Shown here: piece after piece, positions 1-8,940 of the stretch | Layout: every line of letters begins with the position of its first letter | Position numbering within the stretch: the stretch's first letter is position 1 | From: a virus | Taxonomy: Duplodnaviria; Heunggongvirae; Uroviricota; Caudoviricetes | Direction: 5' to 3' (one strand) | Virus record (IMG/VR): IMGVR_UViG_2695420456_000028 | Location: 1-8,940 of that record | Length of the DNA stretch: 8,940 nucleotides | Program-made: the position numbers and the translations under genes | The notes under the pieces: model-generated | What the model saw: the letters and a program-made list of their open reading frames with translations, nothing else | What the model was told of the DNA's origin: nothing | The model's database searches: none

Positions 1-501
1 TTAGTCTCCAGGATTCCCGGGGCGGTTCAGTAAGGGGGTATTTGTATTTATTGTCTTTTGTATATTGTCTTTTGTGTTTAGCTGACTTGGCTTATACCCA
101 TTAGCCGACTTGGCTAATGTTTTATTAGCTGTTTTAGCTAATGTTAAGCTGTCCTGGCTAATCCACTGAGAAACCACCTTGTTCACTCCGATTTTCACGC
201 CATCAGCAATGAGGAATTTACGCTCAATAAGCTGGCGCTTGGCAGCGCAAACATGAGTGTGATGAATACCTGTCATGGCTGCTATCTGCGTGTTTGTGAG
301 TCGATCCATCGGCTTATTGAATCCGTATGTCTTGCGCATGATAGCGAGCATCACCTTCAACTGCCGGACGGTTAAATCAGCCATCAGCAGACTGTCGGTA
401 ATCTCGTTAGCAACGCGCATGAAACCATCTTCGGTATCTGCCACGCGATGCTCCACGACCTCCAGTTGAGGCCTGTAATCAGCTAACTTAACGACGCCCA
501 T
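1..501 (-). CDS. O: Lambda O-like replication initiator, N-terminal iteron-binding part only (166 aa); stop codon at window bases 1-3
   Basis: Minus-strand ORF with ATG at 499-501 and AGGAG SD 6 nt upstream (rc of 502-515). Residues ADLTVRQLKVMLAIMRKTYGFNKPMDRLT resemble the N-terminal domain of lambda O as recalled. The 3' part of the ORF encodes repetitive LAKTANKTLAKSANG over the iteron array. Confidence 0.75.
   Translation of the reverse strand: MGVVKLADYRPQLEVVEHRVADTEDGFMRVANEITDSLLMADLTVRQLKVMLAIMRKTYGFNKPMDRLTNTQIAAMTGIHHTHVCAAKRQLIERKFLIADGVKIGVNKVVSQWISQDSLTLAKTANKTLAKSANGYKPSQLNTKDNIQKTINTNTPLLNRPGNPGD
36..78. repeat. AT-rich tract flanking the iterons, with 11-bp direct repeat TTGTCTTTTGT at 51-61 and 65-75; candidate DNA-unwinding element of the origin
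   Basis: Sequence composition and the direct repeat read directly; placement downstream of the iterons in the direction of O transcription matches the lambda ori layout. Confidence 0.45.
79..160. repeat. Origin-type iteron array: four ~15-bp imperfectly palindromic repeats of form TAGCY-N5-GGCTA, spaced ~23 bp
   Basis: Copies at 79-92 (TAGCTGACTTGGCT), 102-116 (TAGCCGACTTGGCTA), 126-140 (TAGCTGTTTTAGCTA) and 145-160 (TAAGCTGTCCTGGCTA), read directly. Position inside the O-like gene and an adjacent AT-rich tract mirror the lambda ori arrangement. Confidence 0.6.
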
Positions 502-649
502 GTTTCACTCCTGCTTTGGCTAGTCTGTAAACACCAACAAGGCGTTCTACGAACGCCCTGTTATTTGCTGCGGCTACCACTAATCCCTCAGGTGAATCAG
601 GGTGTCGAATCTCTTCTTTTTCCTGGTATTTCTTACGACGTTTTGTCAT
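488..649 (-). CDS. Hypothetical small basic protein (53 aa, MTKRRKKYQEKEEIRHPDSPEGLVVAAANNRAFVERLVGVYRLAKAGVKHGRR) between cII and O
   Basis: ATG at 647-649 (minus) with AGGAG SD 5 nt upstream; stop TAA at 488-490 overlaps the O start. Not in the supplied ORF track (below its size cut-off). No family recognised. Confidence 0.35.
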   Translation of the reverse strand: MTKRRKKYQEKEEIRHPDSPEGLVVAAANNRAFVERLVGVYRLAKAGVKHGRR

Positions 650-726
650 AATTACTCCTGTAGATTGATCCAGTCTTTCTACATCAGGCCTCGAAGAATT
701 CGCCGTTCTTCGGGGCTTTTTCTTTT
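650..726 (+). ncRNA. oop: Candidate OOP-like antisense RNA, antisense to the cII 3' end; 5' end not defined
   Basis: A plus-strand intrinsic terminator (688-726) sits inside the last codons of the minus-strand cII gene, with no plus-strand gene upstream. This matches the lambda OOP arrangement. Promoter not confidently placed (CATAAT at 647-652 is one possible -10). Confidence 0.35.
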
Positions 727-965
727 GTCAGGTAATCGGCAAGCCGCTTAGTCAATTCAGCCATTTCATCGTCTTCGATTCCGTATTCCAGAACAGCAAG
801 CATCATGCTTACCTGCGAGAAGAAACCATTCTTCCATCGGCTTACCTGATATTCAGGAACCCCCATTGCTCGAGCGAATGTCTTCTGCCCCATCAGTGCC
901 AGTTTGTTCAGCAAGGCCGACTCGATGCGAGCCGCTTTCTTGCTTTTAGTTGCAATAGTACCCAT
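684..965 (-). CDS. cII: CII-type transcriptional activator (93 aa)
   Basis: ATG at 963-965 (minus) with AAGGA SD. Motif RIESALLNKLA...SRWK...FSQVSMMLAVLEYGIEDDEMA parallels lambda CII (RIESALLNKIA...SRWKR...FSMLLAVLEWGVVDDDMA) as recalled. Position downstream of cro and nutR. Confidence 0.85.
   Translation of the reverse strand: MGTIATKSKKAARIESALLNKLALMGQKTFARAMGVPEYQVSRWKNGFFSQVSMMLAVLEYGIEDDEMAELTKRLADYLTKEKAPKNGEFFEA
688..726 (+). terminator. Intrinsic terminator on plus strand: stem GCCTCGAAGAA / TTCTTCGGGGC, loop TTCGCCG, then TTTTTCTTTT
   Basis: 11-bp stem with one G-U pair followed by a T-run, read directly; the minus strand has no T-run after the hairpin, so it is orientation-specific. 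Confidence 0.65.
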
Positions 966-972
966 AGATAAT
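940..972 (+). promoter_or_regulatory. Candidate pRE-type CII-dependent promoter: TTGC-N6-TTGC (940-943 and 950-953) with putative -10 GATAAT at 967-972
   Basis: TTGC direct repeats spaced 6 bp lie inside the first codons of cII on the opposite strand, the same geometry as lambda pRE. Transcription would run antisense through cro toward cI. Confidence 0.55.
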
Positions 973-1041
973 TTCCTTAATGATTAGATAGAGTTGGCTT
1001 CGCAAAGAAACGCAAAACCATAGAGATTTGTTTCTGGTAAT

Positions 1042-1073
1042 GCCCTTTTTCAGGGCGGGGATGTGTAAGAGCG
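1042..1073 (-). promoter_or_regulatory. nutR: nutR antitermination site: boxA CGCTCTTAC (rc of 1065-1073) and boxB GCCCTGAAAAAGGGC (rc of 1042-1056)
   Basis: boxB hairpin sequence equals lambda nutR boxB as recalled, and boxA matches the CGCTCTTA consensus. Located between cro and cII on the transcribed strand. Confidence 0.8.
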
Positions 1074-1081
1074 GGAATGTC

Positions 1082-1297
1082 TTAAGCGGCTTTGTGTTCC
1101 GGCGGGAACACGTCATCAAGACTGACTTTTGCGCCTAACTTGTTTAGGCACTCAACAAGAGCACGGCATGTTTTAAGGTCTGGGAAGCGACGACCAGATT
1201 CCCAATGTCCGATAGCTCCCTGTGTGCATCCAACTGCCTTAGCAAGTGTTGTTTGAGAGATATTCAGTGACTCTCGATATTTTCGTAGGTTGCTCAT
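1082..1297 (-). CDS. cro: Cro-type HTH repressor (71 aa, start at internal ATG MSNLRK...)
   Basis: GGAGGG SD 3-4 nt before the ATG at 1295-1297 (minus); HTH segment [21 protein letters not shown]. Divergent from cI. The track ORF extends 9 codons upstream without an SD. Confidence 0.8.
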
Positions 1298-1323
1298 ATG
1301 CCCTCCATAGTAACCATGAAACA

Positions 1324-1352
1324 ATAATACGATATGTACTTTTAGAATGCAA
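1324..1352 (-). promoter_or_regulatory. Candidate pR promoter for cro: -35 TTGCAT (rc of 1347-1352), 17-bp spacer, -10 TATTAT (rc of 1324-1329)
   Basis: Hexamers and spacing read directly on the minus strand; an operator-like site overlaps the spacer and -10. Confidence 0.6.
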
Positions 1353-1398
1353 GCAAAAATACATCTTGTGCATGGATGGTTTTAGTACAGAGCGTAAT
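1326..1398. promoter_or_regulatory. OR operator region: candidate 15-bp repressor sites at 1326-1340 (minus: AGTACATATCGTATT) and 1384-1398 (plus: AGTACAGAGCGTAAT), weaker middle site 1358-1372
   Basis: Sites share AGTACA-N-A-N-CGTA-Y-T with the site in pL; half-sites AGTAC and GTAYT are inverted repeats. A leaderless cI transcript is possible (putative pRM -10 TAATAA at 1395-1400). Confidence 0.5.
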
Positions 1399-1407
1399 AA
1401 TAAGGGT

Positions 1408-2067
1408 ATGAAAATGAAATGGTATGAACTGGCTAGATCCAGAATGAAAGAGCTCGGCATAACTCAAGAGAAGTTAGCTGAAGAGCTTGGTATGACGCAG
1501 GGTGGAATTGGTCACTGGTTGCGCGGATCTCGTCATCCATCTCTTGACGAGATTGGTGTGGTGTTTAAATACCTTGGTATTGATAACGTCTCATTCAACC
1601 ACGACGGTACATTTTCACCTGTTGGCGAATACTCATCTGCCCCCGTTAAAAAACAATATGAGTACCCTGTTTTTTCTCATGTTCAGGCAGGGATGTTCTC
1701 GCCTGAGCTTAGAACCTTTACCAAAGGTGATGCGGAGAGATGGGTCAGCACAACCAAAAAAGCCAGTGATTGTGCGTTTTGGCTTGAAGTTGAAGGTAAT
1801 TCCATGACCGCGCCAACAGGATCGAAGCCAAGCTTTCCTGACGGGATGTTAATTCTCGTTGACCCCGAGCAGGCTGTTGAGCCAGGTGATTTCTGCATAG
1901 CCAGACTTGGTGGTGACGAGTTTACCTTCAAGAAACTGATCAGGGATAGCGGTCAGGTGTTCCTACAGCCACTAAACCCGCAATATCCAATGATTCCATG
2001 CAATGATAGCTGTTCCGTAGTAGGGAAAGTTATCGCCAGCCAGTGGCCTGAAGAGACATTTAGTTAA
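1408..2067 (+). CDS. cI: CI-type prophage repressor, N-terminal HTH plus C-terminal LexA/S24-type autocleavage domain (219 aa)
   Basis: [24 protein letters not shown] nearly matches the Cro recognition helix. Ala-Gly site in HVQAGMF, catalytic Ser in EGNSM and Lys in FKKL fit the S24 peptidase layout. Start at 1408 chosen over the track start at 1246 (1414 also possible). Confidence 0.9.
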
Positions 2068-2098
2068 CAGCCTCACCACTCTAAAACACACAACAATA

Positions 2099-2127
2099 AC
2101 CCGACCTTAGCGTCGGGTTTTCTTTTT
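2099..2127 (+). terminator. Intrinsic terminator after cI: stem ACCCGAC / GTCGGGT, loop CTTAGC, then TTTTCTTTTT
   Basis: 7-bp GC-rich stem and T-run read directly, 32 nt after the cI stop. Confidence 0.7.
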
Positions 2128-2146
2128 CCAAAATATAAACCCATTA

Positions 2147-2221
2147 AATACAAAGCGTTATAAAAAAGTAGTTATATTTAGAACATTTTGTATTGACTCG
2201 ATAAAGTACAAATCGTACTAT
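2147..2221 (+). promoter_or_regulatory. pL promoter with OL operators: -35 TTGACT (2193-2198), 17-bp spacer, -10 TACTAT (2216-2221); sites at 2205-2219 (AGTACAAATCGTACT), 2180-2194 (weaker) and 2147-2161
   Basis: Promoter hexamers read directly. Downstream sequence CATCAGCAGGACGCACTGACCACCATGAAGGTGA matches the start of the lambda pL transcript as recalled. Operator sites share the OR consensus. Confidence 0.7.
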
Positions 2222-2261
2222 TTAGCCATCAGCAGGACGCACTGACCACCATGAAGGTGAG

Positions 2262-2291
2262 GCTCTTAAAAATTAAGCCCTGAAGAAGGGC
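2262..2291 (+). promoter_or_regulatory. nutL: nutL antitermination site: boxA GCTCTTAAA (2262-2270) and boxB GCCCTGAAGAAGGGC (2277-2291)
   Basis: boxB equals lambda nutL boxB as recalled; it lies between pL and N. Confidence 0.85.
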
Positions 2292-2489
2292 AGCATTCAA
2301 AGCAGAAGGCTTTGGGATTGGATGAATGAGCAGGCTTATGCTCGACCAATGTATAAACAGCGCTCATGGCAAGCAGTAACCAATCTGCGCCTCAAGACAG
2401 CGTCACTGGTAGTGCGGGCGCTCTAACCAGTAAGCCGGGGTTCAGCGCCGGCCATCCAATCACCAAAGCTAACTGACAGGAGAATCCAG

Positions 2490-2822
2490 ATGGATGCACA
2501 AACACGCCGCCGCGAACGTCGCGCAGAGAAACAGGCTCAATGGAAAGCAGCAAATCCCCTGTTGGTTGGGGTAAGCGCAAAACCAGTTAACCGCCCTATT
2601 CTCTCGCTGAATCGCAAACCGAAATCACGAGTAGAAAGCGCACTGAATCCGATAGACCTTACAGTGCTGGCTGAATACCACGAACAGATTGAAAGCAACC
2701 TGCAACGTATTGAGCGCAAGAATCAGCGCACATGGTACAGCAAGCCACGCAGTGAAATGGGTGTGACCTGTTCAGGCCGCCAGAAGCAACGCGGAAAATC
2801 AATTCCAGCTTATTACGATTGA
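2490..2822 (+). CDS. N: N transcription antiterminator (110 aa), lambda N-like
   Basis: AGGAG SD 7 nt upstream. N-terminal arginine-rich motif MDAQTRRRERRAEKQAQWKAAN and most of the remaining sequence match lambda N as recalled. Preceded by nutL. Confidence 0.9.
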   Translation: MDAQTRRRERRAEKQAQWKAANPLLVGVSAKPVNRPILSLNRKPKSRVESALNPIDLTVLAEYHEQIESNLQRIERKNQRTWYSKPRSEMGVTCSGRQKQRGKSIPAYYD

Positions 2823-2829
2823 GGTGGTC

Positions 2830-2967
2830 ATGCTCAAGAAAATCAAACGCCGACTTTACAAAGAAGGTAGATATTCATGCCAATTGCCAAAATGCGACAC
2901 AACAAAATGGAGTGTCGATGATTGGTGTAACTGGATAGATAGATACGGAACTTGGTGGGATAAATAA
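2830..2967 (+). CDS. Hypothetical small Cys/Trp-rich protein (45 aa, MLKKIKRRLYKEGRYSCQLPKCDTTKWSVDDWCNWIDRYGTWWDK)
   Basis: ATG 8 nt after the N stop, GAGGTG SD with short spacing; basic N-terminus and three Cys. Not in the ORF track (short). No family recognised. Confidence 0.3.
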   Translation: MLKKIKRRLYKEGRYSCQLPKCDTTKWSVDDWCNWIDRYGTWWDK

Positions 2968-3020
2968 CAGGTAACTTAAGCGTATTTACTTTCGCGGCAA
3001 ACCACATATTTGAGGTGAGA

Positions 3021-3095
3021 TATGGAAGAAGAATTTGAAGAGTTCGAAGAGCATCCGCAGGATGTGATGGAACAATACCAGGACTATCCGTATGA
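3021..3095 (+). CDS. Hypothetical 24-aa acidic peptide (MEEEFEEFEEHPQGCDGTIPGLSV), stop overlaps the ral start (ATGA)
   Basis: Strong GAGGTGA SD 4 nt upstream of the ATG at 3021; stop TGA 3093-3095 overlaps the ATG at 3092-3094 of the next ORF, which has no SD of its own. May act as a translational-coupling leader. Confidence 0.2.
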
Positions 3096-3292
3096 CTACG
3101 ACTATTGATACAAATCAATGGTGTGGACAATTCAAGCGATGCAATGGATGCAAGCTGCAATCGGAATACATGGTTAAGCCTGAAGAAATGTTTCCTGTAA
3201 TGGAAGATGGGAAATATGTCGATAAATGGGCAATACGAACGACGGCAATGATTGCCAGAGAACTTGGTAAACAGAATAACAAGGCTGCCTGA
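3092..3292 (+). CDS. ral: Ral-like restriction-alleviation protein (66 aa)
   Basis: Sequence MTTTIDTNQWCGQFKRCNGCKLQSEYMVKPEEMFPVMEDGKYVDKWAIRTTAMIARELGKQNNKAA matches my recollection of lambda Ral in length and sequence, and sits downstream of N as in lambda. Identity rests on memory and needs alignment. Confidence 0.6.
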   Translation: MTTTIDTNQWCGQFKRCNGCKLQSEYMVKPEEMFPVMEDGKYVDKWAIRTTAMIARELGKQNNKAA

Positions 3293-3309
3293 TGGTGGCC
3301 TTTATTTTT
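3281..3309 (+). terminator. Terminator-like hairpin AAGGCTGCC-TGAT-GGTGGCCTT followed by TATTTTT; the ral stop lies in its loop
   Basis: 9-bp stem with two G-U pairs and a T-rich tail, read directly; the motif is related to the hairpin at 8289-8312. Confidence 0.5.
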
Positions 3310-3331
3310 GGCATAAACAACAGAGGATAAC

Positions 3332-3628
3332 ATGGAATTTAAAGGTACTGAAGGCAAGTGGGAAATAATGATGGATGGCGATGAGATTAAAATAATCCAG
3401 GCAGACTCACTTGAAAATGGCGCAGGCTGGCGTTCGTATATTGCAATCTGTGAGGAAGTTCAATGTATTGAAGATGCCAATCTAATAGCGGCAGCACCTG
3501 ACCTTCTCGAAGCACTTCAGTTATTACTTAAGCAATCCAAAAATAGAACAACGACAACATATCCAGAATGGTATGGAGCTGTTAATAAAGGTCTTGCAGC
3601 AATCAGCAAGGCTCTGGGAGGTGAATGA
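3332..3628 (+). CDS. Hypothetical protein (98 aa), first gene of a coupled pair
   Basis: GAGGA SD before the ATG at 3332; stop overlaps the next start (ATGATG at 3625-3630). No family recognised; motif ANLIAAAPDLLEALQLL. Confidence 0.6.
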   Translation: MEFKGTEGKWEIMMDGDEIKIIQADSLENGAGWRSYIAICEEVQCIEDANLIAAAPDLLEALQLLLKQSKNRTTTTYPEWYGAVNKGLAAISKALGGE

Positions 3629-3828
3629 TGTGCGAGTTTTATGAAGCAGATATCAAACGCCCAGAAATGGCAAGTGATGCGACATTACGTGATTACTTCG
3701 CGGCAAAGGCTATGCAAGCAATGATTAGCAATCCATCGATTATCGATAATGATTCTGATGGAGTTGTTAATTATGCAGCAAGCGCTGCATATAAGTTTGC
3801 AGACGCAATGCTCAAAGCTCGCGAATAA
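3625..3828 (+). CDS. Hypothetical protein (67 aa), second gene of the coupled pair
   Basis: GGAGGTG SD directly upstream; start at 3625 or 3628. No family recognised. Confidence 0.6.
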   Translation: MMCEFYEADIKRPEMASDATLRDYFAAKAMQAMISNPSIIDNDSDGVVNYAASAAYKFADAMLKARE

Positions 3829-3833
3829 GCACT

Positions 3834-3861
3834 GTGTATTCATTCCAACGAGTGAATACAC
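3834..3861. other. Perfect 9-bp inverted repeat GTGTATTCA ... TGAATACAC; as RNA a ~13-bp stem with a 4-nt loop
   Basis: Read directly, 6 nt after the stop of the 67-aa ORF; no T-run follows. Could be an RNA processing or stability hairpin, or a dimeric protein-binding site. Confidence 0.5.
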
Positions 3862-3924
3862 GGAGCAATGTCGCTCGTAACTAAACAGGAGCCGACTTGT
3901 TCTGATTATTGGAAATCTTCTTTG

Positions 3925-3948
3925 CCCTCCGATGTGGGGGGCCTTTTT
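3925..3948 (+). terminator. Possible intrinsic terminator: CCCTCC-GATGT-GGGGGG then CCTTTTT
   Basis: GC-rich hairpin with one G-U pair and a T5 run, read directly; it lies in the non-coding gap upstream of the cIII-like gene. Confidence 0.35.
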
Positions 3949-4014
3949 ATATGCATACCAATAACGCTTCACTCGAGGCGTTTTCGTTATGCAATCAAAC
4001 AGAAGGAGCATCCT

Positions 4015-4185
4015 ATGCAACAGTTCACTATTGCAGGGGCGGCATCGGTTCGCCCTTTCAACCCGATTTTATCGGTACAGCATTCACGAAAAAACATTTT
4101 AACCGGAGCAGACTTTAAACAACCAAGAATGAAAAGTTTGCTCGAAAAGCTTTGGGATATTTTGAAACAACAAGGCCGTCCATGA
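4015..4185 (+). CDS. cIII: CIII-like small protein (56 aa), candidate FtsH-inhibitor type
   Basis: AAGGAG SD 6 nt upstream. N-terminus MQQFTIAG and C-terminal KSLLEKLWDILKQQGRP resemble lambda CIII (MQYAIAG ... KRLIDILNQPGVP) as recalled. The track ORF start at 3868 has no SD and spans a terminator-like hairpin. Confidence 0.5.
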   Translation: MQQFTIAGAASVRPFNPILSVQHSRKNILTGADFKQPRMKSLLEKLWDILKQQGRP

Positions 4186-4352
4186 GTTTTACAGATAACT
4201 GGTCAGACGAAGAATTCATTCGTCAGATGAAAGAATTAATCGGTAACGAAGGAGATATTCATGTCACTTGCAACCACAGTGAAGGAGAGCAAGTTACAGA
4301 GACGCATGTACACGCAGCAGGCGTTAATGTATCGCCAGAAGGGAGATCGTGA
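4182..4352 (+). CDS. Hypothetical small protein (56 aa, MSFTDNWSDEEFIRQMKELIGNEGDIH...), coupled to cIII via ATGA overlap
   Basis: Start ATG overlaps the cIII stop; the N-terminal half looks protein-like and the C-terminal half is low complexity. It overlaps the next ORF in another frame. Confidence 0.3.
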   Translation: MSFTDNWSDEEFIRQMKELIGNEGDIHVTCNHSEGEQVTETHVHAAGVNVSPEGRS

Positions 4353-4431
4353 AGGTGTTCGCGTATTTTTAAATGCGGCAAAGACTGAAGTATTAAATCA
4401 GCGTTATTTCCTTGGGCCATGTCCATTCTGA
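4261..4431 (+). CDS. Hypothetical small protein (56 aa, MSLATTVKESKLQRRMYTQQALMYRQKGDREGVRVFLNAAKTEVLNQRYFLGPCPF)
   Basis: GGAG SD 6 nt upstream of the ATG at 4261; ends 9 nt before the recombinase start. In the position lambda uses for kil, but no sequence identity is claimed. Confidence 0.35.
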   Translation: MSLATTVKESKLQRRMYTQQALMYRQKGDREGVRVFLNAAKTEVLNQRYFLGPCPF

Positions 4432-4439
4432 GGTGAATT

Positions 4440-5147
4440 ATGGATTTGAATAAATTCGATGAGCCATTCAGCCCTGAAGATATCGAATGGCGAATACAGC
4501 AAAGCGGTAAAACACGCGATGGCAAAGTGTGGGCTATGGTGCTGGCTTATGTCACGAACCGGGCAATCATGAAACGCCTGGACGATGTTTGCGGCAAAGC
4601 AGGATGGCGCAATGAATACCGCGATATTCCCAACAACGGCGGCGTTGAATGCGGCATATCGATAAAGATTGATTCCGAATGGGTAACCAAATGGGATGCT
4701 GCTGAAAACACGCAGGTAGAAGCCGTCAAAGGTGGTCGTTCCGGTGCAATGAAGCGCGCTGCCGTTCAGTGGGGAATCGGTCGGTATCTGTATAACCTTG
4801 AGGAAGGTTTCGCACAAACATCTCTCGATAAAAAGCAGGGGTGGCACAGGGCAAAACTGAAGGATGGAACAGGATTTTACTGGCTACCTCCATCGCTGCC
4901 GGGATGGGCAATCCCAGCATCAGATAACAAACCATCACCAGAAAATACCAACCAGAAATCTCCATCGGTTGACTGCGAACAAATCCTGAAAGACTTCAGC
5001 GATTATGCATCAACAGAAACTGACAAGAAAAAACTCATAGAACGTTATCAGCATGACTGGCAATTAATGGCTGGCAATGAGGATGCGCAGGCTAAATGCG
5101 TTCAGGTAATGAACATCAGAGTTAACGAACTAAAACAGGCGGCATAA
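4440..5147 (+). CDS. Rad52/Sak-family single-strand annealing protein (235 aa)
   Basis: GAGGTGA SD; motif AMKRAAVQWGIGRYLY matches the conserved GIGRYLY signature of Rad52-type phage recombinases as recalled. An ssb gene follows immediately. Confidence 0.8.
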   Translation: MDLNKFDEPFSPEDIEWRIQQSGKTRDGKVWAMVLAYVTNRAIMKRLDDVCGKAGWRNEYRDIPNNGGVECGISIKIDSEWVTKWDAAENTQVEAVKGGRSGAMKRAAVQWGIGRYLYNLEEGFAQTSLDKKQGWHRAKLKDGTGFYWLPPSLPGWAIPASDNKPSPENTNQKSPSVDCEQILKDFSDYASTETDKKKLIERYQHDWQLMAGNEDAQAKCVQVMNIRVNELKQAA

Positions 5148-5654
5148 ATGGCAAGCAGAGGCGTAAATAAGGTGATTATCCTTGGTCGGGTAGGACAAGA
5201 CCCGGAAGTTCGATACTCACCATCAGGAACAGCGTTCGCTAACCTGACAATAGCCACGTCAGAACAATGGCGAGATAAAAATACTGGCGAGCAAAAGGAA
5301 TTGACTGAATGGCATCGTGTTGCTGTATCCGGGAAACTGGCTGAGGTCGTGGGGCAGTATGTGAAAAAAGGTGATCAGATTTATTTCGAGGGAATGCTGA
5401 GAACCAGAAAGTGGAAAGACCAGTCAGGGCAAGACCGTTACACAACCGAGGTTCATGTCGGAATTAATGGCGTGATGCAAATGCTTGGCGGCATTGGCGA
5501 CAGCAAACAACAAGCAGCCAGCAGGCAATCACAGAAGCCACAGCAGCAATCATCACCAGCACAACACAACGAACCTCCGATGGATTTTGACGACGATATA
5601 CCCTTTGCACCAGTAACTCTCCCCTTCCCTCGTCACGCTATTCACGCAATTTAA
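5148..5654 (+). CDS. ssb: Single-stranded DNA-binding protein (168 aa) with internal DFDDDIPF motif plus a 15-residue C-terminal extension
   Basis: OB-fold N-terminus ([18 protein letters not shown] ... TEWHRV), Gln/Pro-rich linker and [11 protein letters not shown] motif; the ORF continues [15 protein letters not shown] before TAA at 5652-5654. Confidence 0.9.
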
Positions 5655-5667
5655 TCAGGAGAAAATC

Positions 5668-5964
5668 ATGCCAGCGCCTCTGTATGGTGCGGATGACCCG
5701 CGCCGCTGTTCCGGCAATTCCGTATCGGAGGTGCTGGATAAATTCAGAAAAAACTACGATCGGATAATGTCTCTACCGCAGGAAACGAAAGATGAAAAGG
5801 AATTTCGCCATTGTATATGGCTTGCAGAGAAAGAAGAACGAGAGCGAATTTACCAGACATCAATCCGACCATTCCGCAAAGCCACATATACCCACTTCCC
5901 TGAATATATCGACCCGCGCCTGCGTAATTACCGCTCACGCTATGGCGCTATCAGTAATGACTGA
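5668..5964 (+). CDS. Hypothetical protein (98 aa)
   Basis: AGGAG SD 6 nt upstream of the ATG at 5668; no family recognised. Confidence 0.55.
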
Positions 5965-5974
5965 GGAATTTACC

Positions 5975-6139
5975 ATGAGAGGACTTGCATACAATCCCGG
6001 CATTCTTCCGGCAGAAATGATTATTCGCCAACGCGTAAAGCCAATGCCATCGAGAGAGGAATTGCTTAAGAGAAATAGTTTCTGTTCTGTTAATGACAAC
6101 AAATATCTGAATGCAATGTGGCGGAGTGGGAAAAAATGA
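5975..6139 (+). CDS. Hypothetical small protein (54 aa)
   Basis: GAGGA SD 7 nt upstream of the ATG at 5975; stop overlaps the next start (ATGA at 6136-6139). The track ORF 5792-6139 extends upstream across the previous gene without an SD. Confidence 0.4.
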
Positions 6140-6453
6140 CAATCACAAAACAACGTGTAGAAGAAATCATATCCCGCATTGAAATGTATGGGCATGGTGC
6201 AGGGTATACCGCTGACGAGGTTTATGACCTGGCTGTACTGGCGCTGAATTTATCAAATATCGCAAAACTCAAGCGATACGAGCTTGATATGGATGGTTGT
6301 GACTCGTTCGGTCAGGATTGTGGCGCTGACATGACTGAAGATTCTGATGGCGATTATGTCCTGTTTGATGACGTGGTTAAGTTGTTTGAGTTTGATACAA
6401 CCACTCAGAAGATAGAAAGCCCAGCAAAGGAGGCAACCAGTGAGCGAAATTAA
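6136..6453 (+). CDS. Hypothetical acidic protein (105 aa)
   Basis: ATG at 6136 is coupled to the upstream stop; the track start at 6118 is a GTG. The 3' end overlaps the next gene by 14 nt. Confidence 0.55.
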
Positions 6454-7090
6454 TTACCAGGCACTGCGTGAGGCGGCAGAGCGTGCAATTCCGGCAATGG
6501 AACGCCTGTTAATGTTGCCAGTTGATGATGATTTGTTAAGTGAACAGGAACTTAAAGATTACGGTGTGGATATTGATGCGCTCAACGCCTTCAAATTTCT
6601 GGCCGGACCAGAAACCGTGCTGGCACTACTGGATGAATGGGAAAGAAACCAGCAATACATCAAACGCCGCGACCAGGAGAACGAGGATATTGCGCTTACG
6701 GTTGGGAAGCTGCGCGTTGAGCTGGAAGGCAAAGACAGCAAAATAGCCAATCTTACCGCCGAACGCGATGCTCTTCGTGAAGGTGAGATGGGCGACGCTA
6801 GGCATAGCAACACACGGGCCGCAGCTGATATCTACTTCCAACTGGTCGAGGAATGCGAAATTCCTGCTGGCGGATCTCTGGTCGAGTACGTTGACGATAT
6901 GCGCGAGAAGCTGGAAGCCGCAGAGAAGCGGATTGCTGAACTGGAAGCGCGGGAAATATCGCTCCCAGAACGTAGCAGCATGCTTCATCGAACAGATTTT
7001 CACGAGGATTACCAAACGGTAATGGCATACAAAGTTTCTGAAGTCATCGATGCAATCCGCGCTACTGGCATTCGCATCAAAGGAGAGTGA
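6440..7090 (+). CDS. Ea22-like coiled-coil protein (216 aa), GTG start
   Basis: AAGGAGG SD 6 nt before the GTG at 6440. Segment LLDEWERNQQYIKRRDQENEDIALTVGKLRVELE resembles lambdoid Ea22-family proteins as recalled (moderate certainty). Confidence 0.65.
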   Translation: MSEINYQALREAAERAIPAMERLLMLPVDDDLLSEQELKDYGVDIDALNAFKFLAGPETVLALLDEWERNQQYIKRRDQENEDIALTVGKLRVELEGKDSKIANLTAERDALREGEMGDARHSNTRAAADIYFQLVEECEIPAGGSLVEYVDDMREKLEAAEKRIAELEAREISLPERSSMLHRTDFHEDYQTVMAYKVSEVIDAIRATGIRIKGE

Positions 7091-7091
7091 T

Positions 7092-7949
7092 ATGAGCACT
7101 ATCACTAAAGAACGTATCGAATTGTTCATTAAATCCCCGCTTGAAAACGGGCTTACTCGTGGCGAACAAATGGAACTGGCACGAATTGCGCTGGCATCGC
7201 TGGAAGCAGAGCCTGTGGCGTATATCATTCAGGACTCTGACGCTCGTAGTCGTGGAGAGAAAGGCATCCTTCGCTATTTCGCAAATATCAGCGACGAGGA
7301 TATAAACGAGTACGAAATTACCGTAACTCCGCTTTACGCCGCCCCTCCAGAGACGGTATCTGTGCCTGATGCGATGGAAATGGATGATGACTTTGACAGC
7401 GCGTTTGAACACGGAAAAGCTGTCGGCTGGAACGCCTATCGCGCAGCCATGCTTCAGTCCGGAAACTTTCGGGAAAACAAGAATTCGTCAACCAATAATT
7501 TTCGTGAAATCGCGGAAACGTCAACCAACTATCCGGTAATTCCTAGTGAGGTGTTGTCCGCAATCCAGAAGGTTGCCAAGATTCGTGCCGATTTCGATGA
7601 TTTTGACGGTGACAGGCGAGGTATCTGTGATTGTCTGGATGAGGCTGAGCAAGAGCTTATCGTTACCATTAACAAATATGCCAGTCAGTTGGCAGCAGAA
7701 CCTATCGCGCCTAATGACGTTCGAGAGCAGACAGCCATTCCGCAAGTTCCGGTAACTCCGGATGGTTGGATAAGCTGTAGTGAGCGAATGCCGAAAGGGT
7801 ATGCTGATGTGTTAGTGACCGATGGCGAGCATGTCGAGGTTAAATGGTGGGATGAATCTGGGTATTGGAATAGTTGGACGGAACTTAACTCAGATATCTT
7901 TGCCGATGAAATAACTCACTGGATGCCGCTACCAGAGCCTCCACTTTGA
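7092..7949 (+). CDS. DUF551-domain protein (285 aa)
   Basis: AAGGAGAG SD; the C-terminal segment ending THWMPLPEPPL is typical of DUF551 proteins of lambdoid prophages as recalled. Start at 7092 rather than the track start 7050. Confidence 0.7.
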   Translation: MSTITKERIELFIKSPLENGLTRGEQMELARIALASLEAEPVAYIIQDSDARSRGEKGILRYFANISDEDINEYEITVTPLYAAPPETVSVPDAMEMDDDFDSAFEHGKAVGWNAYRAAMLQSGNFRENKNSSTNNFREIAETSTNYPVIPSEVLSAIQKVAKIRADFDDFDGDRRGICDCLDEAEQELIVTINKYASQLAAEPIAPNDVREQTAIPQVPVTPDGWISCSERMPKGYADVLVTDGEHVEVKWWDESGYWNSWTELNSDIFADEITHWMPLPEPPL

Positions 7950-8045
7950 AAGCGAAGCTTATACATATCTTTTACATCAGCAATCTATTGTTAATCTCCA
8001 ATCAATGTTACGTTGTCATCTCACTCATGCTTTGGAGGTAGTGAT

Positions 8046-8225
8046 ATGTCTTGTCCAAAATGCGGTTCTGGAAATATTGCAAAAGAAAAAACAATGCGTG
8101 GATGGTCTGATGATTATGTGTGCTGCGATTGCGGATACAACGACTCTAAAGACGCATTTGGAGAGCGTGGTAAAAACGAGTTTGTCAAAATTAATAAAGA
8201 ACGCGAAGGCAACGAAAAAAGCTAA
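8046..8225 (+). CDS. Small zinc-ribbon protein (59 aa, CPKC ... CCDCG)
   Basis: GGAGG SD 7 nt upstream of the ATG at 8046; four-Cys arrangement C-x2-C ... C-x-C. The track start at 8013 has no SD. Confidence 0.55.
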   Translation: MSCPKCGSGNIAKEKTMRGWSDDYVCCDCGYNDSKDAFGERGKNEFVKINKEREGNEKS

Positions 8226-8288
8226 TTTATTTATTCATATATGAAAACAATGTAACCAATATTCGAATTGAAGAACTGAAAGAACACC

Positions 8289-8312
8289 AAGCCGCCTGAT
8301 GGCGGTTTTTTT
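8289..8312 (+). terminator. Intrinsic terminator: AAGCCGCC-TGAT-GGCGGTT then TTTTTTT
   Basis: GC-rich stem and T7 run read directly; the SD of the next ORF follows immediately. Confidence 0.65.
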
Positions 8313-8326
8313 ATTGGAGACAAGAA

Positions 8327-8671
8327 ATGTCAGATTTGGCTATGAAGGTTTTGAAATGGCAATCGACTGGCGATGTCGGCATCAGTAGCGCAACTCTTGC
8401 CTCAATCGCATGTGGACTGAAAAAGAATATCTATGGTCATCACTTCGGCGCTCCACATGACGCAGCCGATTTCCGGCGATGCGTTGCACTTGTTGAGCAG
8501 ATTCCAGAAATCAGAGATTCATTCGACAAGGTTGCAAAGCGCGTTCCGGCATTCAAAGGAATCCTCAACGAATGGGATTCACTCGTTGCTCTGTTGAAGT
8601 CTGAAATGAAGATACACGAAAACAAAGCACCAGAGACTTACAGAAGAATTAGCGAGCTACGCAAGGACTAA
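8327..8671 (+). CDS. Hypothetical protein (114 aa)
   Basis: GGAG SD 7 nt upstream of the ATG at 8327; bracketed by terminator-like hairpins. No family recognised. Confidence 0.6.
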   Translation: MSDLAMKVLKWQSTGDVGISSATLASIACGLKKNIYGHHFGAPHDAADFRRCVALVEQIPEIRDSFDKVAKRVPAFKGILNEWDSLVALLKSEMKIHENKAPETYRRISELRKD

Positions 8672-8710
8672 CGCCTCACACTCGATGAGGCCTGTACATA
8701 TCTGATAGAT

Positions 8711-8733
8711 CCGCTATATGGCGGTTTCTTTTT
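8711..8733 (+). terminator. Weak terminator-like hairpin CCGC-TATATG-GCGG followed by TTTCTTTTT
   Basis: Short 4-bp stem and T-rich tail read directly; a second hairpin GCCTCA-N7-TGAGGC lies at 8673-8691. Confidence 0.35.
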
Positions 8734-8748
8734 GCCTGGAGAATTAAG

Positions 8749-8940
8749 ATGACCGATACCAGCCTGATTCCTGAGAAAGAAGTGATGAACAAGCTCGGTG
8801 TTTCATCACGTCAGACAATCTGGAACTATACCAAACGGCACGGATTTCCGAAGCCAGTCAGAACCCACCCCAAATCATACCTTCGTGAAGCTGTTGAGGG
8901 GTGGATTCTTAACGGTGGCGTTAATCAGAAATGCTCCTGA
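8749..8940 (+). CDS. xis: AlpA/Xis-family DNA-binding protein, candidate excisionase (63 aa)
   Basis: GGAG SD 7 nt upstream. Segment KEVMNKLGVSSRQTIWNYTKRHGFPKP resembles AlpA/excisionase-type regulators as recalled; it is the last gene of the pL operon, so an integrase is expected just beyond the window. Confidence 0.7.
   Translation: MTDTSLIPEKEVMNKLGVSSRQTIWNYTKRHGFPKPVRTHPKSYLREAVEGWILNGGVNQKCS

Follow-up and report, generated by a model that had tools for sequence, protein, structure and literature searches.

Here we present an analysis of three small open reading frames (ORFs) that lie between ssb, the gene of a single-stranded DNA-binding protein (SSB), and an Ead/Ea22 gene in a stretch of 8,940 nucleotides (nt) from a tailed phage (IMG/VR record IMGVR_UViG_2695420456_000028, positions 1 to 8,940). 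This whole stretch is called the window, and all positions given below are window positions. The interval very probably combines the distal end of an HK75-type recombination (Rec) module with the first gene of the mosaic ea region, ORF1 coding for Abc2, ORF2 for a DUF2737 protein and ORF3 for an ea-region protein. The finding mostly resolves into known lambdoid-phage biology, the first gene being a classic RecBCD modulator, and two testable loose ends remain. The new points are modest ones drawn from comparison: abc2 is almost always accompanied by the DUF2737 gene, and the slot of the OLD inhibitor Oad2 is taken by ORF3 in a Gp33-positive phage. If DUF2737 does belong to the module, the published Rec-module definitions of P22, HK620 and HK75 are one gene short, while a Gp33-positive, Oad2-negative phage should be either sensitive to OLD or equipped with a new inhibitor.

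Identity of the three ORFs

The three ORFs are real genes, beyond chance. Each of them gave a full-length match to a family profile, and each is under purifying selection when compared with natural variants, the ratio of nonsynonymous to synonymous polymorphism (pN/pS) being 0.22, 0.25 and 0.15 for ORF1, ORF2 and ORF3 in turn; across ORF3 the remaining frames gave 1.59 and 0.95. An earlier interpretation made from the letters of the DNA (the sequence-only reading) had described three packed ORFs of 98, 54 and 105 amino acids (aa) with Shine-Dalgarno (SD) sequences, an ATGA at 6136-6139 and a 14-nt overlap at 6440-6453, and all of these are present in the sequence. The ORF1 start codon follows the ssb stop at a spacing of 13 nt, the gap between abc2 and ORF2 is 10 nt, and in the ATGA the stop codon of ORF2 overlaps the start of ORF3. 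The placement between ssb and an Ea22-like gene is equally sound: the upstream flank matched PF00436 (SSB, 1.6e-36) and the downstream flank PF13935 (Ead/Ea22, 3.9e-30). The features of the interval are the following.

5657..5661, + strand: SD sequence AGGAG of abc2, 6 nt from ATG 5668, read off the sequence
5668..5964, + strand: ORF1 (abc2), ATG 5668, TGA 5962-5964, 98 aa
5869..5871, + strand: codon of Abc2 Pro68, a residue kept in the alignment with 8b1t_A; its role is taken from PMC9836394
5963..5967, + strand: SD sequence GAGGA of ORF2, overlapping the abc2 stop, 7 nt from the start, read off the sequence
5975..6139, + strand: ORF2 (DUF2737 gene), ATG 5975, TGA 6137-6139, 54 aa
6123..6126, + strand: SD sequence GGAG of ORF3, 9 nt from the start
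6123..6139, + strand: gene-boundary joint, GGAG SD followed by ATGA; probable deletion joint
6136..6453, + strand: ORF3, ATG 6136, TAA 6451-6453, 105 aa
6136..6249, + strand: N-terminal helical module of ORF3, residues 1-38, common to the N termini of many ea-region proteins
6274..6378, + strand: acidic Cys motif module of ORF3, residues ~47-81; the motif begins R-[YF] and ends [YF]-V
6427..6453, + strand: start of the Ead/Ea22 gene within the 3' end of ORF3, SD AAGGAGG 6427-6433, GTG 6440, 14-nt overlap

Judged by its sequence, ORF1 is Abc2, the already known P22-type anti-RecBCD protein. It matched the Pfam family PF11043 (Anti-RecBCD_p2) at 1.3e-61 with 205.2 bits (cut-off 25), its residues 1-98 falling on positions 1-97 of the 97-position profile, and phrog_656, annotated 'abc2 anti-RecBCD', at 1.1e-56. 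Among PDB sequences the sole matches were 8b1t_A/8b1u, 'Anti-RecBCD protein 2' (3.4e-56, ~90% identical). Over residues 1-66 the protein differs from 8b1t_A by three substitutions (R32L, D42E and S65A); R67-P68-F69 is intact, and the IRPFRK segment is kept in the alignment. PADLOC models gave for ORF1 a chance-level match only (E 0.041). The sequence-only reading had recognised none of the three ORFs and had named homology to known recombination accessory proteins as something that would speak against its interpretation; ORF1 has just such homology, and to a protein whose structure is solved (PF11043, 8b1t_A).

The structures 8B1T and 8B1U represent RecBCD-Abc2 with or without PpiB, with Abc2 residues 3-66 modelled and contacting RecC (PMC9836394). 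P22 Abc2 co-purifies with host PpiB, P68 being almost certainly in the PpiB active site, and is unstable if expressed alone (PMC9836394). It barely alters the helicase and nuclease activity of isolated RecBCD; these in vitro effects are oddly mild, and the mechanism in vivo is still unclear (PMC9836394). According to earlier work cited in PMC9836394 and PMC12315714, Chi activation is lost under Abc2, with hand-over to the phage annealase. Given the ~90% identity to P22 Abc2, RecC binding and loss of Chi-stimulated recombination may be expected of ORF1 as well. Pro68 of the window protein would be engaged by host PpiB, the RecBCD helicase and nuclease would be largely spared while the Chi response is blocked and the enzyme redirected, and the single-stranded DNA coming from the redirected RecBCD would pass to the Erf/Rad52-like annealase and SSB of the phage. 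There is no Chi site (GCTGGTGG) on either strand across the 8.9 kb window.

The HK75-type Rec module

The genes upstream of ORF1 are those of phage HK75. The 56-aa product of 4182-4352 is 100% identical to HK75 Gp33 and belongs to phrog_2123, annotated 'recombinase' (the gene is also open as a 66-aa TTG-started ORF, 4152-4352). The annealase encoded at 4440-5147 matched PF04098 (5e-26) and phrog_1097 (4.6e-130), and the DNA of 5148-6139, comprising ssb, abc2 and ORF2, is 98.6% identical to HK75. In HK75 the gene order is gp33, Erf (gp32), SSB (gp31), Abc2 (gp30), DUF2737 (gp29) and gp28. A 2025 survey of 325 lambdoid phages made HK75 the prototype of a Rec-module type consisting of an anti-RecBCD protein, SSB and an annealase, with no nuclease (PMC12315714). 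The shared order together with the identity makes abc2 the last gene of a known module, and not the first of a separate cluster.

By its sequence ORF2, in turn, is a member of DUF2737, a known, uncharacterised Pfam family. It matched PF10930 at 3.4e-30 with 104.1 bits (cut-off 25), residues 1-52 falling on profile positions 1-52 of 53, and phrog_1117 at 9.7e-38 over 1-54 of 54. Its orthologues are P22 Orf56 (PF10930 at 6.9e-42), HK97 gp38, HK620 HkaI, HK75 gp29 and HK446 gp28. All the invariant columns of the family (P23, R27, R33, F36, N42 and L45) are found in ORF2, the core motif running from the P to N-K-Y-L, and the product is basic (pI 10.4). The family is small and enterobacterial, with 142 clusters at 90% identity. 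The AlphaFold2 (AF2) model of DUF2737, with a predicted template modelling score (pTM) of 0.24, contained short helices only and was too poor for a fold search; judging from this model the peptide looks poorly structured alone, which fits a protein that folds on a partner. The DUF2737 alignment, used as a profile against PDB sequences, gave no match better than E 0.2, the PADLOC models gave none to ORF2, and the literature searched for DUF2737, PF10930, phrog_1117, hkaI and orf56 reported no function.

Association of abc2 with the DUF2737 gene

The neighbourhood of both genes was followed in IMG/VR, in 80 loci centred on Abc2 relatives and as many centred on DUF2737 relatives. DUF2737 came next after Abc2 in all 79 Abc2-centred loci with more than 40 nt of downstream DNA, and Abc2 stood just upstream in 74 of the 80 DUF2737-centred ones. 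The gap between the two genes is 10 nt in 148 of 175 loci; in the other 27 a DUF5405 gene widens it to 297 nt, so the abc2/DUF2737 boundary is itself an insertion point. GenBank phages gave similar counts, a near-full Abc2 being present in 225 records and a near-full DUF2737 in 223, and the contiguous pair occurs in 1078 of 5426 complete E. coli genomes. The pair is present in P22, HK97, HK75, HK446, HK620, the Stx2a phages, UAB_Phi20 and VSe13.

This association extends over widely diverged forms of Abc2. Relative to the window, Stx2a phages have an Abc2 of 63% and a DUF2737 of 94% identity, and the Abc2 of UAB_Phi20 is 67% identical; in Pseudocitrobacter faecalis and in a contig labelled Chryseobacterium, Abc2 is at most 32% identical (phrog_656 ~1e-22) and DUF2737 50-54%. 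In L258, which is the Chryseobacterium contig, and in L259 the Abc2 match to phrog_656 at ~1e-22 is followed by a match to phrog_1117 at 1e-22 to 1e-24. In mEp554 an Abc2 of 35% identity (phrog_656 2.5e-31) is followed by a 74-aa ORF with weak DUF2737 matches (Pfam 0.0039, which is below threshold, and phrog_4684 2.7e-5). The pair is thus kept although Abc2 identity ranges from roughly 30 to 99%. Relative to the window, the two proteins vary in identity independently of each other, Abc2 of 55-70% occurring with DUF2737 of 94-98% and the reverse being found too, which indicates recombination between abc2 and DUF2737 without their separation.

From this synteny, that is from adjacency to abc2 across the Abc2 family, we tentatively suggest, at a chance clearly short of even, that DUF2737 is an accessory of the Rec/anti-RecBCD step. 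A more specific version appears rather doubtful, namely that DUF2737 is an overlooked working part of the RecBCD-hijack module, a small basic partner-folded peptide which aids Abc2 or masks the tampering with RecBCD from host guards. As a module accessory it would bind a host target or a module component conserved irrespective of the Abc2 allele. No gene of the module accompanies abc2 more faithfully than DUF2737, and the mild in vitro effects of Abc2 make a missing cofactor of interest.

Several observations weigh against placing DUF2737 in the module. In some E. coli prophages it occurs without Abc2, behind RecT, Gp157 and a 104-aa protein resembling helix-turn-helix (HTH) proteins, so Abc2 cannot be its sole target, and virulent Jersey-like phages, which lack abc2, carry a relative with the same C-terminal motif. 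The decoupled alleles argue against a tightly co-evolving Abc2-DUF2737 interface, and the adjacency could reflect conserved mosaic boundaries instead of shared function. Moreover, the published definitions of the P22, HK620 and HK75 modules stop at abc2, DUF2737 having been omitted from the constructs, and the recombineering and OLD-trigger work which defined the module without it reported no missing function.

Much of the same evidence favours the main rival explanation, in which DUF2737 is unrelated to RecBCD or recombination and is an independent small host-takeover or regulatory peptide settled at a preferred mosaic junction. Its place behind non-Abc2 genes in RecT-type modules, its relative in the virulent phages, the DUF5405 gene inserted behind abc2 and the decoupled identities would all be accounted for, and we give this explanation a chance falling only somewhat short of even. 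It is opposed by the fact that Abc2 was never found without DUF2737 where downstream DNA was present, even at ~30% Abc2 identity; besides, the non-Abc2 cases keep DUF2737 at the distal end of a Rec module, with Gp157 and a phrog_323 protein.

Some side observations concern these loci. The DUF5405 insert belongs to phrog_154, annotated 'replication initiation protein', and is found for example in L170 (1724-2005), L256, L259 and as HK446 gp29 (L262, 5194-5484). In the RecT-type modules the Gp157 protein has a weak Mu-Gam-like match. The 104-aa HTH-like protein preceding DUF2737 in the RecT-Gp157 modules (L038, 2170-2484; L169, 1682-1996) shares phrog_323 with P22 Abc1 (2.8e-20 versus 1.3e-23) with no pairwise alignment, and is possibly a distant analogue of Abc1; the idea that it is a divergent Abc2 was rejected, as no alignment was obtained. 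Two assemblies labelled as Bacteroidota, L258 (Chryseobacterium sp. 18061) and L260 (Taishania pollutisoli), carry enterobacterial-type loci. In L258 the annealase is 77% and SSB 71% identical to those of the window, next to divergent abc2 and DUF2737 genes; the labels of both are likely due to mislabelling or contamination.

ORF3, a modular protein of the ea region

ORF3 is a real member of the uncurated phage family phrog_3126 (3.7e-67, 1-105 of 105) and a modular ea-region protein. No match was found in Pfam, NCBIfam or PADLOC, and the literature searched for phrog_3126 reported no function. Close homologues number 269, and an exhaustive search of 1.8 billion representatives gave 107 at the 50% identity level. 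With a pI of 4.2 the protein is acidic, and it consists of two modules. Matches limited to the N-terminal one, residues 1-38, occur in proteins of 140-285 aa, and the N terminus of the DUF551 protein encoded in the window is 43% identical to it over 37 residues. In the second module D56, C62, D65, M66, E68 and G72 are invariant and C55 nearly so; most relatives have C-D-S-C where ORF3 of the window has C-D-S-F. This Cys module is also found in proteins carrying DUF551, a MazG-like pyrophosphohydrolase domain (PF04447) or Ead/Ea22.

The AF2 model of ORF3, of moderate quality with a predicted local distance difference test score (pLDDT) of 67.8, contains helices at 5-18 and 26-43, a small hairpin, a further helix and a disordered tail. 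ORF3 would be a minimal member of a domain-shuffling acidic ea-region family, in which a helical hairpin at the N terminus is combined with a hairpin motif rich in Cys and Asp, and it is predicted most likely to act by binding a protein partner. Any functional assignment has to reckon with a model of merely moderate quality and with the lack of a sequence or fold relative of known function, no match below E 0.2 having been found for the profile against PDB sequences and none in the fold search.

Homologues more than 80% identical to ORF3 are found in temperate lambdoid phages and in virulent siphoviruses (e.g. Skatevirus LPST10). In addition, we noticed that early small-gene clusters of the virulent Skatevirus/Jerseyvirus type contain an ORF3 homologue of 80-86% identity together with a DUF2737 C-terminal-motif protein (for example L162, Salmonella phage LPST10, 3501-3848, and Jersey, L164, 2441-2599). 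The presence of relatives of ORF3 and DUF2737 in virulent phages suggests recent exchange between temperate and virulent enterobacterial phages. Among shuffled forms, the window DUF551 protein begins with MSTITKERIELFIK..., a variant form of the N-terminal module of ORF3, and in the database protein P0258 this same N terminus is joined to the ORF3 Cys motif, an arrangement pointing to domain shuffling among ea genes.

The ORF2/ORF3 joint and the Oad2 slot

In all 62 IMG/VR loci which contain both genes, DUF2737 and ORF3 are separated by 358-1769 nt, occupied by a gene of EaE/HkaH type or by a fusion of EaE to HNH. A microhomology, GGAG(G)TG..AA(A/G)AA|ATGA, is common to the two natural boundaries, by which the junction of the window looks like a precise gene-boundary deletion. 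The ATGA joint probably arose by loss of an EaE/Oad2-type gene at this microhomology. The contiguous DUF2737|ORF3 form is known from few E. coli genomes (H52, H53 and H59), and the whole trio, at a coverage of at least 80%, occurs in 33 of the 5426 E. coli genomes, whereas 1078 have the abc2-DUF2737 pair. Such ATGA junctions are a general feature of the operon and therefore no marker of the three genes as a functional unit.

In a preprint of July 2026 (10.64898/2026.07.10.737580) Gp33 of HK75 and HK446 alone was reported to trigger the abortive tRNase OLD of phage P2 and was proposed as a new RecBCD manipulator. An inhibitor of OLD was reported in HK446 gp27 (Oad2), a protein related to EaE and in some cases fused to HNH or Ea22. 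The Oad2 homologue of HK75 itself does not inhibit OLD, and the recombination locus was described as an anti-defence hotspot (10.64898/2026.07.10.737580). In HK446 gp27 (oad2) starts at the end of DUF2737, which is the slot held by ORF3 in the window. In our comparisons HK75 gp28 was found to be 54% identical to Oad2 (3e-58), a positive control for which the preprint states the same homology. ORF3 gave E-values of 0.56-1.8 against HK446 gp27, HK75 gp28, HK620 HkaH and P22 EaE (Oad2 0.64), i.e. no similarity, and was rejected on sequence as an EaE/HkaH/Oad2 homologue. A tblastn search with HK446 gp27, HK75 gp28 and P22 EaE against the whole window found nothing at E <= 1.

With Gp33 present and no Oad2/EaE homologue, the phage is either OLD-sensitive or covered by something else, possibly ORF3. 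This leads to the idea that ORF3 is a counter-defence protein that replaces the missing Oad2/EaE, e.g. by shielding a Gp33-carrying phage from OLD or from another RecBCD guard. Its supports are a Gp33 fully identical to the OLD trigger of HK75, a window free of Oad2/EaE homologues, the location of ORF3 directly after DUF2737 as for oad2 in HK446, the acidic nature of the protein, and its highly similar forms (>80%) in temperate and virulent enterobacterial phages, as is often the case with mobile accessory genes. Against it, ORF3 resembles neither Oad2, EaE nor HkaH in sequence, coexists with an EaE/Oad2-type gene in most relatives and has no fold match, and the inactivity of the HK75 Oad2 homologue towards OLD means that position alone predicts little. 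We consider such a role unlikely; phrog_3126 as a new counter-defence protein of the Oad2 hotspot is possible, and a weaker reading than that of DUF2737 as a part of the module.

ORF3 could alternatively be a functionally detached N-terminal part of the downstream Ead/Ea22 protein, the two acting together or occasionally as one chain. The 14-nt overlap of both genes would suit this, as would the fusion of ORF3 modules elsewhere to DUF551, MazG-like and Ea22 domains, the Ea22 gene coming next after ORF3 in many loci, and the database protein P0241 (278 aa), in which an ORF3 homologue is fused in-frame to an Ead/Ea22 domain at this very junction. That fusion is a single cluster set against hundreds of separate forms of 100-105 aa, and ORF3 also precedes DUF551 genes or nothing recognisable and has other contexts in virulent phages; no slippery sequence turned up, while no search was aimed at one. 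The arrangement is improbable. As for the junction itself, the overlap of the window at 6427-6453 is out of frame, with one extra base relative to the fused reading, and the P0241 fusion may be real or a sequencing error.

The view of the sequence-only reading was that the three ORFs form one coupled moron or anti-defence cassette of unknown function, separate from replication and recombination. Tight packing with an overlapping stop-start junction, the mosaic region and the reported anti-defence hotspot speak for it, and the mosaicism is borne out by the DUF5405 insert in 27 of 175 loci and by the EaE/HNH gene between DUF2737 and ORF3 in 62 of 62. The single cluster dissolves on inspection, ORF1 and ORF2 being a conserved pair of the upstream Rec module and the ORF2/ORF3 joint a rare deletion variant: ORF3 directly joined to DUF2737 was seen in none of the 62 sampled loci, the trio is far rarer than the pair in E. 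coli genomes, the ATGA junctions are general, and no PADLOC match was obtained. Of the proposed cargo an anti-defence flavour survives, as Abc2 targets RecBCD and oad2 occupies the slot in HK446; the moron label fails for ORF1, a core Rec-module gene. A coupled cassette is largely refuted and very improbable.

The overlapping ORF 5792-6139 (115 aa), which the sequence-only reading had considered as a possible true gene in place of the 54-aa ORF2, is an open frame with an ATG in the window and was rejected as next to inconceivable. It is the ORF2 frame begun at an upstream ATG, and the DUF2737 and phrog_1117 profiles reach its residues 62-115 (the last 54) only; the additional codons run over 173 nt of abc2, with no SD in front of them. 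Among 134 distinct homologous sequences a single one has an ATG at such a distance (60 codons upstream, compared with 61 for the window), and in 38 a stop codon comes within 41 codons upstream of DUF2737.

Neighbouring genes and the early-left operon

The interval would belong to a P22/HK97-like lambdoid phage or prophage of Escherichia and be co-transcribed as a whole within its early-left (pL) operon. No promoter-like or terminator-like sites were found on the + strand in 4400-7200, which fits co-transcription from pL. The order of the operon on the + strand is given below.

+ strand, first in order: cI-type repressor gene
2490..2822, + strand: N-like antiterminator gene
3092..3292, + strand: ral
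+ strand, next after ral: cIII
4182..4352, + strand: Gp33 gene
4440..5147, + strand: Erf/Rad52-like annealase gene
5148..5654, + strand: SSB gene, followed by ORF1-ORF3
6440..7090, + strand: Ead/Ea22 gene
+ strand, next after Ead/Ea22: DUF551 gene
+ strand, right end of the window: excisionase-like gene

The Ea22 protein of the window is a true homologue of lambda Ea22, 56% identical to it over the N-terminal 102 residues, and both begin with a GTG start followed by SEIN. The DUF551 gene (7050-7949, +) almost certainly starts not at 7050 but at ATG 7092, behind AAGGAG and 1 nt past the Ea22 stop. The ral gene (phrog_1055, 1.7e-48), responsible for restriction alleviation, is a further counter-defence function upstream on the same transcript. 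No complete E. coli genome and no GenBank phage covers at least 80% of the window, so this exact mosaic is absent from both collections.

Comparison with known systems

The small ORFs of the lambda exo-xis region occupy the same map interval as ORF2 and ORF3, a part of the pL operon bounded by the Rec module and ea22/xis. When ORF2 and ORF3 were compared with lambda orf60a (DUF1317), orf63 (DUF1382), orf61 and ea8.5, the best BLASTP E-value was 0.075 (ORF2 against orf60a), and the profiles A1 and A2 gave nothing better than E 0.088 against the lambda exo-xis ORFs. Homology of ORF2 or ORF3 to these ORFs was rejected, as no significant similarity was found.

The likeness of ORF3 to Oad2, EaE and HkaH is one of position only, these genes likewise starting at the ATGA which ends DUF2737, in the same reported anti-defence hotspot. 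In most relatives ORF3 stands after an EaE/Oad2-type gene and not in its place.

ORF2 and the named DUF2737 members of P22, HK97, HK620, HK75 and HK446 are 72-98% identical and 54-56 aa long, and agree in their 10-nt distance from abc2 and in being overlapped by the start of the gene that follows; nothing in the sequence of ORF2 is notably different. ORF1 and P22 Abc2 are of equal length and ~90% identical, differ at three positions among the RecC-contacting residues 1-66 and keep Pro68, most substitutions falling within the last 25 residues, a part disordered in the structure. Both stand at the distal end of a pL Rec module, behind the annealase, and differ in their upstream partners, which in the window are of HK75 type (Gp33, the Rad52/Erf-like annealase and SSB) and in P22 are Arf, Erf and Abc1.

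P22 Abc1 offers a model for the role proposed for DUF2737, being an auxiliary anti-RecBCD protein encoded by a small gene that flanks abc2. Abc1, which resembles HTH proteins and sigma-70 region 4, is encoded upstream of abc2; the window lacks it and has ssb at that position. DUF2737 and Abc1 are unrelated in sequence, and of the two it is DUF2737 that is linked to abc2 far more constantly.

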